The notes beneath the pieces were generated by a model. It saw only the letters and a program-made list of their open reading frames with translations. It had not been told where the DNA came from and made no database searches. This document shows positions 23,646-26,938 of a stretch of DNA of 32,014 bases, in pieces. The stretch covers positions 2,528 to 34,541 of the forward strand of contig CAYLZE010000047.1 of NCBI GenBank assembly GCA_964388035.1, written 5' to 3'. The translations under genes were made by a program, and so were the position numbers. The stretch is from an uncultured archaeon (GTDB lineage Archaea > Asgardarchaeota > Lokiarchaeia > Sigyniarchaeales > SOKP01). Every line of letters begins with the position of its first letter. Position 1 is the first letter of the stretch.

Positions 23646-24671
23646 ATGGAAAAAAGAAGAGAGTATAGATTAACTCAACAAGTAAAAATCCACGGATGAA
23701 GTTGCAAGCTAGGACCAAACAACTTAAAAGATTTATTAATGAAAGTTGGATTGAACGGTGATATCGAGGATGCTGCCGTCATTCCGGTTCCAAATTCGGA
23801 ATTAGTATTGGTTAAAAACATAGACATTTTCACTCCAATTGTTGATGAACCAAATATTATGGGACAAATAGCCGCTTGTAATGTGACTAATGATCTTTTT
23901 GCCATGAATGTTTTGGAAGTTTCAGGCATGTTAGCATTTCTTGCCATTCAAACCAGCACGCCTATTGAAATTGCGGAAGGGATTCTTGAAGGTATGAAAT
24001 ATTTCATGGAAGAAAAAATAAAATCAAAAATTGTGGGTGGACATACAATCTATTGCGAATGGCCTTTAATGGGGGGAGAAGCTTCGGGATTCTTATATAA
24101 AGACGCCGTTATTCCTAAAGGGGGTGTTCGGGAAGGAGATGAACTGATATTGACGAAACCTGTGGGGTTACAAGCAATAACAGCCGCTTATCGGATTCGA
24201 AAGGACATGCCTGAATTATTAAGTGCATATTCTTCTCAGGAAATACAGAATTCCATAGACTTTGCTATTGATCTCATGACCACTTCAAATCAAGATGTAG
24301 TTAAAATCATTCATACCTATAATGATATGTCCTTTATCCATGCCATGTCGGATGTGACTGGGTTTGGACTGGCAGGTCACGTTCAGGAAATGCTTCAAAA
24401 CTCTTATCTCTCCGCTGAAATTAAAATTGTACCTTATATTAAACTTTCTAATGAATTATCTAAAGAATTTGGTTATGCTTTCGACGAATGTAGTACTCAT
24501 GAAACTGCGGGAGGTATGGTTATGTCTGTCGATCCTTTAAAGGTAGATGAATTTTCAAAAAGATTGAAAGAAAACGGAGTAAATAATTGGATTATTGGGA
24601 CGATTGATAGTGCAGGATCTAATGAAGTAAAAATTTCAGAGAACGTGGATTTTGTTGAAGTTTCTAAATGA
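23646..24671 (+). CDS. selD: Selenophosphate synthetase, selenoprotein form (Sec18, TGA at 23697-23699); 341 aa
   Basis: In-frame ATG at 23646 gives MEKRREYRLTQQVKIHG-U-SCKLGP, the SelD active-site motif. Also EDAAV, DIFTPIVD, NDLFAM, GGHT, LTKPVG, DVTGFGLAGH, ETAGG. GAGGT RBS upstream and SECIS downstream. Confidence 0.95.
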
Positions 24672-24674
24672 TAG

Positions 24675-24749
24675 GGACGCCTAGGATATAAATCTAAAAA
24701 CCTATAAAGGAGGGATTTATGGAGGATTCCATTCGCAAAATGGACGTCC
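24675..24749 (+). promoter_or_regulatory. SECIS element (eukaryote-like, kink-turn core) in the selD 3' UTR
   Basis: Tandem GA(24685-6)/GA(24722-3); 9-bp stem 24687-95/24713-21; unpaired AAAAA (24696-700); apical mini-stem CCU/AGG; closing helix GGACG/CGUCC. GC-richer than other intergenic DNA. Confidence 0.8.
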
Positions 24750-24766
24750 AATATATAAAATATCTG

Positions 24767-25594
24767 TTAATTTTTATTGGTTTTAATTTTACCATTCAAT
24801 TTTAGCACTATTTCCTTCGCTTTTTTTAAAACCTCATCCACCATTTCGTCTCCATTTTCTACATTAAAGCAAGTTATGGAGAGTTCCACTTCCACGGAAA
24901 GTCCGACTCTAGGATGGGTTTTAATCCATAGTTGAGGAAATTCTTTTTCTAACTTCGTAACGTGAGGTGCTATTTGAGATTCGCCAATTCCAGAGAAAAT
25001 GAATCCTTTTTGAATGAAAGATCCTTGCTGTTCTTTTAGAATCGGTTTAATAACGGTATTAAACATGGCTTTCATTTCCATGGGGACTCCCGGAAGACAA
25101 TAAATCGTGGTACTTCCTTCTACAATTTTAACTCCGGGAGCTGTTCCACGAACATTTGGCAAAGGAGTAGAGCCCTTGGGAAGGTTCGCCATTTTTTCTC
25201 TTTCGGGAGTCATGCCTTCCATTCTTAAAATACCTTGGGAAACAGCGTTTTCATAAGCCTTTTTAATAGATTGATATGCTTGTTTATCCCGATGAATATC
25301 ACGATTCAATCCCTTGGCAACCCCTTCTAAAGTCATGTCATCAAAAGTCGGACCTTGGACTTAAAGAATTCAATCTTCTTTAATTAATCCACCCGAAGTG
25401 ATGATCATGTCAGGAGCTCTACTTAAAATGTCGTGCAAAGTAAGGGAAATTTCCTCCAAACTATCCCCTATGGTTGTTATTCTCCGTAATTTATGACCGT
25501 ATTTAGTTATTCTCTTTGTCATCCAATAAGAGTTTGTATCTTGAGTTTTTCCTATAAGTATCTCGTTTCCAATTATTAGAAGTTCAACAATCAT
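24767..25594 (-). CDS. cinA: CinA-like molybdopterin-binding (MCF/COG1058) protein, two exons: 25594-25385 and 25354-24767; 265 aa after splicing
   Basis: IGNEILIGKTQDTNS, IGD, TSGGL|GPTFDDMT, REKMANLP, N..GTAPG, LPGVPMEMKAM, GESQIA. Both ORF-track fragments are in the same frame, separated by a 30-nt insert. Confidence 0.9.
25355..25384 (-). other. 30-nt archaeal BHB intron in the cinA-like mRNA
   Basis: Canonical BHB: outer UCGGGU/GUCCGA, central GGAU/GUCC, bulges UA|A and AA|G, inner UUAAAGAA/UUCUUUAA with a 7-nt loop. Contains in-frame TGA and TAA. Confidence 0.9.
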
Positions 25595-25717: not shown

Positions 25718-26938
25718 TTAAGAAATCTTTACCATATCAGGATTATTCGGGCCAAAATGCTTAAGCATGACAATCGGTTCCACATCAGATTGATTTGAGA
25801 TTGTTATTCCCTCCTTGGCAACTTGCTCACTGATAAAAAATTCATCATTAGTCAATTGCCCATATCTGATTAAAGACGGGGTTTCAATCTTCCAATTATT
25901 CATCAATCCGTATCCTTGTAGCATGATCATTCCATAAGCCGCATTATCTTTAATTACAGCTTTTTTACCTGGCAAAATCGTTAATTCTTTTGCACTAAAC
26001 TCTTCAGATTTATAACAAATCCATTTCTCAATATATCCTTCTTTCTTCATTAGTTCTAACTGCTTTACCGGAATTGGAAGCATGAAATTCTTAGAACTAT
26101 AATCAGGATCAATATTTGCGTCCCAATCAATTATTTCCATTAAGTAATCAAAATCACCAATTTTACCTTCCGGAGTATTTTTCCATAAGAGTTCTTCTGA
26201 AATAATTTGCCCATTAGTAAGGGATTGATACATTGCAAATATGTCAGAAGCTTTTTGGGGTTCATACGTACAAAGACTGCCCGGTGCATGTAATACGCCC
26301 GGTGGAACATTCCATCCCGTACCAACACTAAGAGCATATGCCTTGGAAAAAGAAAGAATCTTATTATCTCCTTTTGTAAAATTTATCAAACTTTCTTTAA
26401 CTTGGCTTTTTGTAGTACCTGGGTTAAATCCAAAAAAAGTATAAGGGAAATCTCCTCCATGATTATTGACTTGAGCTGGAAAATAATATGCTTCAGGTTT
26501 TCCTTTTTGCCCCACGATTTTGGCATGTTGTTCGCGATGATGAATGTGGTGAGGAAGAGGGCCCTGATTGTCAAAAAACTTAGAATACATGGGCCATTCT
26601 TTAAATTCCTTCCACAAACGATCCCCTATAAGTTCTCCTTTCAATTCTTGCACGGCGTCTTTGAGTAAGAATTTTTTAAACTCGCCCCCTTCTAAAAATA
26701 TTACTTGACTTAAACCTTCATTGGGAGCTGTAAGAGGGCCATTATCAGCGGGCGTCGTGGATGAAAACCATCTCTCATCTATCCCTCCTCTATTACTCCC
26801 TAAAGCATAATAATCATTTGGATGCAACTTAATCCTTCTTCCCGGAATACAAAATGCTCGAGGCACCCAAGTGGGAGCCAGTTTAAAAATTCCCTTCCCA
26901 TCCTTAAATGTCCTCTCAATTAGATTTTCATTAACCAT
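25718..26938 (-). CDS. Cupin-fold protein related to class I mannose-6-phosphate isomerase
   Basis: ERW, SKFFD..PLPHHIH, GKPEAYY, VPPGVLHAPG...YEPQKASD metal-binding motifs. Confidence 0.75.
   Translation of the reverse strand: MVNENLIERTFKDGKGIFKLAPTWVPRAFCIPGRRIKLHPNDYYALGSNRGGIDERWFSSTTPADNGPLTAPNEGLSQVIFLEGGEFKKFLLKDAVQELKGELIGDRLWKEFKEWPMYSKFFDNQGPLPHHIHHREQHAKIVGQKGKPEAYYFPAQVNNHGGDFPYTFFGFNPGTTKSQVKESLINFTKGDNKILSFSKAYALSVGTGWNVPPGVLHAPGSLCTYEPQKASDIFAMYQSLTNGQIISEELLWKNTPEGKIGDFDYLMEIIDWDANIDPDYSSKNFMLPIPVKQLELMKKEGYIEKWICYKSEEFSAKELTILPGKKAVIKDNAAYGMIMLQGYGLMNNWKIETPSLIRYGQLTNDEFFISEQVAKEGITISNQSDVEPIVMLKHFGPNNPDMVKIS

Follow-up and report, generated by a model that had tools for sequence, protein, structure and literature searches.

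Sequence evidence for a probable bulge-helix-bulge intron in the cinA-like gene of an Asgard archaeon

The window that we analyzed is a stretch of 32,014 nucleotides (nt) from an uncultured Asgard archaeon (Lokiarchaeia, Sigyniarchaeales, SOKP01; positions 2,528 to 34,541 of contig CAYLZE010000047.1, assembly GCA_964388035.1). On its minus strand, a cinA-like gene is interrupted by 30 nt that very probably represent a bulge-helix-bulge (BHB) intron of the pre-mRNA, excised by splicing of the tRNA type. The putative intron (25355-25384, phase 0) lies between exon 1 (25385-25594; 70 codons, MIVELL...ITSGGL, with a start Met that orthologues share) and exon 2 (24767-25354; 195 codons plus stop, GPTFDDMT...KTNKN), and these boundaries come from an independent comparison, in which the exons were aligned by tblastn with intronless orthologues. 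The minus strand reads TCG GGT GGA TTA ATTAAAGAAGATTGAATTCTTTAAGTCCAA GGT CCG ACT TTT GAT GAC, where ATTAAAGAAGATTGAATTCTTTAAGTCCAA stands for the 30 nt from 25384 to 25355. In the frame of exon 1, the insert contains two stops, UGA as its codon 5 and UAA as its codon 8, and the open reading frame (ORF) of exon 1, translated from unspliced RNA, terminates after ...SGGLIKED. We infer splicing of the cinA mRNA from the comparison of related sequences and from the enzymology of BHB introns.

By its sequence, the interrupted gene is classed as a CinA-like (COG1058) gene of nicotinamide adenine dinucleotide (NAD) metabolism, at the level of the family. Its two exons together encode a PF00994 (MoCF_biosynth) domain with the GGLGPTxDD loop and have the length and architecture of PRK01215. 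Exon 1 matches positions 2-66 of the PF00994 profile with 54.1 bits and exon 2 matches positions 67-143 with 40.3 bits, each above the cut-off of 26.6 bits. With NF002291 (the NCBIfam profile for PRK01215, the CinA type related to nicotinamide mononucleotide deamidase), exon 1 covers positions 6-72 and exon 2 positions 73-261, scoring 67.4 and 159.1 bits; since their simple sum of 226 remains under the equivalog cut-off of 293, we filed the gene as CinA-like rather than as that equivalog. In both profiles, the positions are contiguous over the junction (66|67 and 72|73, respectively). The insert separates the codons of GGL|GPT in the SGGLGPTFDD loop, the most conserved motif of the gene, so that taking out exactly 30 nt restores both the loop and an uninterrupted domain. 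The predicted spliced product has 265 amino acids (aa), and the predicted mRNA junction is GGTGGATTA^GGTCCGACT, joining 25385 to 25354, with a junction peptide that contains ITSGGLGPTFDDMTLEGVAK.

Only one copy of cinA was found by six-frame search in the source genome (G000; 5.47 Mb, 96.7% complete), and public gene calls give it as two ORFs, one of 189 aa and one of 74 or 94 aa. Pairwise ratios of nonsynonymous to synonymous substitution (dN/dS) of the exons range from 0.10 to 0.30, and the nearest intron-bearing pair, G023 and G048, gives 0.19 (dN 0.026, dS 0.135). The exons of cinA are thus under purifying selection.

To characterize the RNA structure around the insert, we computed minimum free energy (MFE) and centroid folds with ViennaRNA over 25404-25340. 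Both consist of 10 pairs, 3 unpaired nucleotides, 8 pairs, a 7-nt loop, and 3 unpaired nucleotides on the opposite strand. In the canonical register, the minus-strand RNA has a 6-bp outer helix between UCGGGU of exon 1 (25391-25396) and GUCCGA of exon 2 (25348-25353; pairs UA, CG, GC, GC, GU, and UG, thus including two G.U), and a 4-bp central helix between GGAU of exon 1 (25387-25390) and GUCC of the intron (25357-25360; GC, GC, AU, and UG). An inner 8-bp stem, UUAAAGAA/UUCUUUAA, closes the 7-nt loop GAUUGAA (25361-25383), and the unpaired bulges are UAA on the 5' side (25384-25386) and AAG on the 3' side (25354-25356). Every pair of this register is standard. For the intron of cbf5, the rule that was used and verified places each cut between the second and third bulge base (PMC2738675). 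Applied to cinA, this rule predicts cuts at UA|A, between 25385 and 25384, and at AA|G, between 25355 and 25354, which would excise exactly 25384-25355, the 30 nt that homology defines as the insert. The resulting junction, GGL|GPT, is that of 129 intronless orthologues, and moving both cuts 1 nt upstream leads to an identical product.

A weaker form of the motif (central helix 4/4, inner stem of at least 7 bp, outer helix of at least 4 bp) occurs about 65 times per strand in a block-shuffled version of the genome (5.5 Mb, 26 lengths), a chance rate of about 5e-7 per position and length. The significance of the cinA structure lies in its 18 specified pairs, found at a position and with a length that protein homology fixes independently. 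The first-pass annotation of this DNA had described 30 extra nt, with UGA and UAA in frame, in a cinA-like gene, which the sequence and the ORF list confirm, and had proposed a BHB fold in the 4+6 register, which contains standard pairs throughout. Its further statements, that cuts at UA|A and AA|G restore SGGLGPTFDD and that the exons are otherwise intact, agree with the intronless orthologues, the profile positions, and the purifying selection, and its expectation that annotation would misjudge the gene is in keeping with the split public calls.

The insert is shared by relatives of the source organism. A six-frame search with exon 2 covered 135 genomes of the same family and found an orthologue in 119, of which 9 carry an insert of 29 or 30 nt at the identical codon boundary. 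They belong to four genera: besides G000, these are G013 (genus g13), all four genomes of g4 (G004, G016, G023, and G048), and 3 of the 50 genomes of g11 (G067, G099, and G107). Metagenome contigs provided three further variants (L146, L178, and L196), bringing the total to 11 distinct intron sequences. G001, the other genome from the genus of the window, has an uninterrupted cinA, and no interruption was seen in the more distant archaeal orthologues that we fetched (Bathyarchaeia, Thaumarchaeota, Thermoproteales, and others). Four lineages have an insert of 29 nt, which puts exon 2 in a different frame; in these, only exact removal of the segment defined by the BHB puts exon 2 back in frame. 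The closest relatives are named Promethearchaeota/Promethearchaeia, i.e., Loki-type Asgard archaea, in line with the Asgard host that had been assumed from the sequence.

Relative to the boundaries set by homology, the motif sits at constant offsets in all intron versions, with bulges of 3 nt and inner stems of 7 to 9 bp; the central helix is 4/4 in most of them and 3/4 in three g4 genomes. The stems occur as compensated variants (UUAAAGAA/UUCUUUAA, UUUAGAA/UUCUAAA, UUUAAGGA/UUCUUAAA, UUAAAGGA/UCCUUUAA, UUAGAGAA/UUCUCUAA, and UCAAAGGAU/AUCCUUUAA), and the loops of orthologous introns vary freely. In a model-fitted alignment of nine sequences, standard pairs fill 89% of the pair cells versus 19 to 66% when the partners are slid, and the covariation score was reached by none of 500 shuffles. 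Two pairs of the inner stem underwent compensatory double changes (AU/UA and AU/GC). What is kept among homologous introns is structure rather than sequence, by few independent events.

The exon half of the motif is also constrained. We compared the codons around the junction in 17 intron-bearing loci, representing 11 distinct introns, and in 129 intronless loci. TCG is found in 16/17 of the former and 17/129 of the latter, and TTA for Leu in 17/17 and 41/129, respectively. Conversely, no intron-bearing locus uses GGA for Gly(-3), GGA for Gly(+1), or CCT for Pro, which are used in 70, 48, and 49 of the 129 intronless loci. Hence, TCG-GGY-GGA-TTA | GGB-CCR is nearly fixed in the presence of the intron, and synonymous codons are used freely in its absence. 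Relatedness inflates these counts, yet the intron-bearing genes span four genera. The intron has probably been kept at this site because the codons of Gly-Gly...Gly-Pro (GGN GGN / GGN CCN) are self-complementary and able to form the exon half of the motif.

The host encodes the required machinery, i.e., a tRNA splicing endonuclease (EndA) and the RtcB ligase (on contig C23). Two tRNA_int_endo (PF01974) paralogues are present in the genome, of 202 aa on C146 and 200 aa on C33. Judging by the EndA motif of M. jannaschii, the C146 protein (ORF at C146:8038-8646) keeps the Tyr-His-Lys pattern, which we take to be catalytic, and the C33 protein (ORF at C33:37574-38176) has no His, an absence that would fit a structural subunit in an (alpha-beta)2 enzyme. 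Enzymes of the (alpha-beta)2 type accept relaxed motifs. ARAGORN recognized only 22 tRNAs in the genome, 15 of which have introns (8-81 nt, many of 23-36 nt), and many other tRNA genes are probably too interrupted for recognition. These results are consistent with a recent preprint, according to which most Asgard genomes have two EndA paralogues and heavily interrupted tRNA genes.

In the mechanism that we propose, the last 10 nt of exon 1 pair with the 3' end of the intron, as the 4-bp central helix, and with the start of exon 2, as the 6-bp outer helix; the 8-bp hairpin of the intron serves as the inner helix, leaving the two 3-nt bulges on opposite strands. A heteromeric (alpha-beta)2 EndA would cut this structure at UA|A and AA|G, RtcB would ligate the exons and probably circularize the intron, and the spliced mRNA would be translated into the 265-aa protein with an intact SGGLGPTFDD loop. 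Sequence and folding show the first step, and the later ones are modeled on BHB enzymology together with the comparative evidence. Altogether, the 11 lineages, the 29-nt versions, the covariation, the codon constraint, and the presence of two EndA paralogues and RtcB argue for the tRNA-type splicing of the mRNA that the first-pass annotation had put forward. The two comparisons that it had recommended point the same way: aligned orthologues revealed the insert with compensatory stem changes, and the dN/dS of the exons gave no sign of relaxed selection.

Several observations weigh against splicing of a canonical BHB intron. The MFE fold of the window's sequence favors a near-equivalent 5+5 register of central and outer helices over the canonical 4+6, and its folding energy is ordinary for an A+T-rich RNA (z = -1.7, with 10 of 200 shuffles folding equally well). 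Three g4 lineages have a G.A mismatch as the first pair of the central helix, and in several sequences, the MFE leaves a weak central helix open, which makes their motifs relaxed ones. The covariation reflects few independent events, with two double-change pairs, and comes from a model-fitted alignment that is biased toward the structure. In addition, a 74-aa fragment would be made if translation were coupled to transcription and the RNA were still unspliced. Finally, one intron-bearing genome, G107, has a premature TAA in cinA exon 1, the only exception to the open full-length frames of the nine exon pairs.

The G107 codon (L042/L087, on CAZRBD010000218.1) is codon 18 of exon 1, which is CAA in all relatives; two neighboring substitutions accompany it, and the coverage is about 5x. 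Near-identical contigs from two other samples, SDBU01004921.1 and LAZR01001167.1, have an intact exon 1. Either an error in sequencing or a recent inactivation would explain the TAA.

The best surviving alternative, which we nevertheless consider very improbable, is that cinA is a pseudogene, inactivated by insertion of a short hairpin-forming DNA and now decaying. The two in-frame stops of the insert, the separate ORFs of the public calls, and the nonsense codon of G107 speak for such a gene. However, decay does not account for a site that is occupied in 11 distinct lineages of four genera, nor for exons that, G107 aside, remain open and full-length with dN/dS of 0.1-0.3, including in a close intron-bearing pair. 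The gene is, moreover, single-copy, the stems of the insert covary, and the codons of the exons are constrained so as to preserve the motif.

Slightly less credible still is a split gene, in which separate N-terminal (74 aa) and C-terminal (189 aa) polypeptides assemble and no RNA is spliced. An ATG located 7 codons into exon 2 opens the 189-aa ORF, and public pipelines call both ORFs; yet this ATG encodes the conserved Met of FDDMT, which is also found in intronless genes, and the break would disrupt the invariant GGLGPT loop, halfway through a single Pfam domain. A split gene would also leave unexplained the BHB geometry, the covarying stems, the constrained exon codons, the spacer of 29-30 nt, and the selection on both exons.

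We regard translational recoding, either a ribosomal bypass of the 29-30 nt like that of phage T4 gene 60 or a frameshift, as very unlikely. A stable hairpin and a stop soon after the take-off region superficially resemble the gap of gene 60. The take-off and landing codons are, however, unmatched (UUA versus CAA|GGU on the landing side, with AAA|GGC in its place in other lineages), the conserved Leu would be lost if the ribosome hopped from GGA to GGU, and bypassing needs neither two 3-nt bulges spaced by 4 bp nor base pairs between the two exons. Least likely of all is a sequencing or assembly artefact: the source is a metagenome-assembled genome with an estimated contamination of 7%, but homologous inserts are found across many unrelated assemblies, the identical insert is present in JGI contig Ga0315536_1030319, which matches the window across 1554 nt with 1 mismatch, a Logan assembly of public reads has yielded records of the truncated cinA ORFs, and this recurrence in at least two other assemblies identifies the insert as real DNA.

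The cinA intron was most likely gained once, early in the history of the family, and has since been lost precisely and repeatedly, a course also proposed for cbf5; lateral spread is a possible alternative. In the CinA tree, intron-bearing genes are scattered, with g4 forming a clean clade and the three g11 genes lying among intronless g11 genes. The best tree requires 5 changes, well-supported branches force at least 2, and the tree is too poorly resolved to tell one gain with many losses from several gains. The inner stem UUAAAGAA/UUCUUUAA is common to lineages of three genera. The nearest intronless relative of an intron-bearing gene, L186, has 88-89% DNA identity and almost unchanged junction codons. 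Among the 160 loci fetched, DNA identity between an intronless and an intron-bearing one did not exceed 89%, i.e., we found neither a transcript-derived contig nor a very recent loss.

Other genes of the genome contain comparable inserts. The ubiquitin-conjugating enzyme (E2) gene, with a UQ_con domain, has a 30-nt insert with a TAG (G000:C38:34333-34362), in which the central helix is 4/4, the inner stem 9 bp, and the outer helix absent, so that the motif is relaxed; its removal gives ...YPFQPPYAYAVTLMWHPNI.... The CTP synthase gene pyrG (G000:C37:367-1240) is split, with matches to positions 1-62 and 70-265 of Pfam CTP_synth_N in different frames about 100 nt apart, and a CCATAC/GTATGG hairpin lies between ...DQDFG and KYERFLG. 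No clean canonical BHB was obtained for the pyrG insert at any register scored. A candidate strict BHB of 31 nt (G000:C199:1791-1821; inner helix 7 bp, outer helix 6 bp) has 78 open codons on one side and 500 on the other, which its removal would join; its contig is G+C-rich and may be contamination.

Genome-wide scans singled out cinA. A covariance model (R1, built from five cinA introns with their flanks) retrieved the cinA site only; its next hit, C64:19848-19912 (E 0.24), falls within an ORF that has no interruption and was rejected as a chance match. The strict BHB scan gave 132 and 123 hits on the two strands versus 65 in the block-shuffled genome, with cinA as the only convincing gene-breaking case. 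A loose scan (central 4/4, inner helix of at least 5 bp, outer helix of at least 2 bp, joining at least 60 open codons on each side) returned mostly spacers of adjacent genes, which were discarded. As the other mini-introns, such as those of E2 and pyrG, are relaxed and are missed by a motif scan, these scans do not provide a census. It is an evenly balanced question whether the cinA intron is one of dozens of mini-introns dependent on EndA and RtcB scattered over protein genes of Lokiarchaeia, of ancient standing in the family and either retained or exactly lost by individual genes. The earlier suggestion that its removal could be regulatory, in the manner of HAC1 or XBP1, finds no support: nothing indicates regulation, and similar inserts in unrelated genes of the same genome fit constitutive removal better.

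Turning to the neighborhood, cinA is accompanied within 1.5 kb, across the loci examined, by selD, a PIG-L protein, a weak PCI-domain ORF, and a conserved ORF of about 192 aa, and no homing-endonuclease gene was found near cinA in these loci. In the window, selD (23739-24749, with AIRS domains) and cinA are convergent; the frame of selD opens, in most relatives, just past a stop codon at SCKLGP..., as would an in-frame UGA encoding selenocysteine. The ORF of about 192 aa (TIEIDDSGTGDLVGDAFIG...) lies upstream of cinA (L019:555-1133, L020:2506-3084, L022:355-930, and L005:2372-2944), has no sequence match in Pfam, NCBIfam, or PDB, and adjoins both intron-bearing (g4) and intronless (G017) cinA. 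Directly upstream of cinA in the window, a 406-aa ORF (25718-26938, minus strand) has no Pfam or NCBIfam match. An oxidoreductase gene with a hairpin at 2304-2361 has a frame that is open throughout, and its MFE structure, a long imperfect hairpin, does not have the form of a clean BHB. Rfam and ARAGORN gave no hits on the window.

A 2020 study lists cbf5 as the sole case of a BHB intron in a coding sequence, besides an intron in a 5' untranslated region (UTR), and further coding-sequence cases are merely predicted (PMC2738675). In the searchable literature, including reviews and structural papers to 2026, confirmed BHB splicing of a coding sequence is likewise restricted to cbf5, the other mRNA substrate being a Haloferax 5' UTR intron, and we found there no report of a cinA intron, in agreement with the first-pass annotation, or of mRNA introns in Asgard archaea. 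As the most canonical gene-breaking BHB found in its genome, cinA offers a clean experimental substrate. In an Asgard host, a need to splice mRNA before translation would bear on the origin of introns and on the separation of transcription and translation in the eukaryotic lineage. Furthermore, gene callers fragment such genes, which distorts Asgard gene inventories and pseudogene counts.

The system most comparable to the cinA intron is that of the pseudouridine synthase gene cbf5, whose pre-mRNA contains a BHB intron in Desulfurococcales and Sulfolobales (Watanabe 2002; Yoshinari 2006; Yokobori 2009, PMC2738675). In both, a short insert flanked by the BHB lies inside the coding sequence at a highly conserved catalytic motif, the cuts separate the second and third bulge bases (for cinA, by prediction), the EndA of the host is heteromeric (for cinA, again by prediction), and the patchy distribution among relatives implies gains and losses. 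The cinA intron differs in its gene (CinA/COG1058) and phylum (Asgard/Promethearchaeota), in its phase 0 position, whereas the cbf5 intron lies within an Asp codon, and in its fully canonical motif (hBHBh'), whereas most cbf5 introns are relaxed (PMC2738675). Splicing of cbf5 was confirmed by complementary DNA and in vitro cleavage, that of cinA is deduced by comparison; and cbf5 was described as the only such gene of its hosts, in contrast to the several split genes of this genome. In Haloferax volcanii, the BHB intron of HVO_1309 is located in the 5' UTR and is an EndA substrate according to circular RNA sequencing and in vitro cleavage (PMC7714728). Like the cinA intron, as predicted, it is an EndA substrate within an mRNA; unlike it, it is 46 nt long and resides in an untranslated leader, so that the protein is independent of exact excision.

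The splicing of HAC1 and XBP1 involves IRE1 with a tRNA ligase or RtcB, the latter joining the ends in metazoans, and acts as a regulated stress switch. It shares with the proposed cinA splicing the excision of an mRNA segment by a protein endonuclease independently of the spliceosome, the 2',3'-cyclic phosphate ends, and the change of the translation product; it relies on IRE1 and a twin stem-loop motif, and the likeness is conceptual only. Closer in structure are the archaeal tRNA and rRNA introns processed by EndA and RtcB, which have the same recognition structure, the same bulge spacing, and the same size range as the cinA intron, and presumably the same enzymes. In contrast to these, the host RNA of the cinA intron is an mRNA, from which removal would have to be frame-exact to the nucleotide and would compete with translation.
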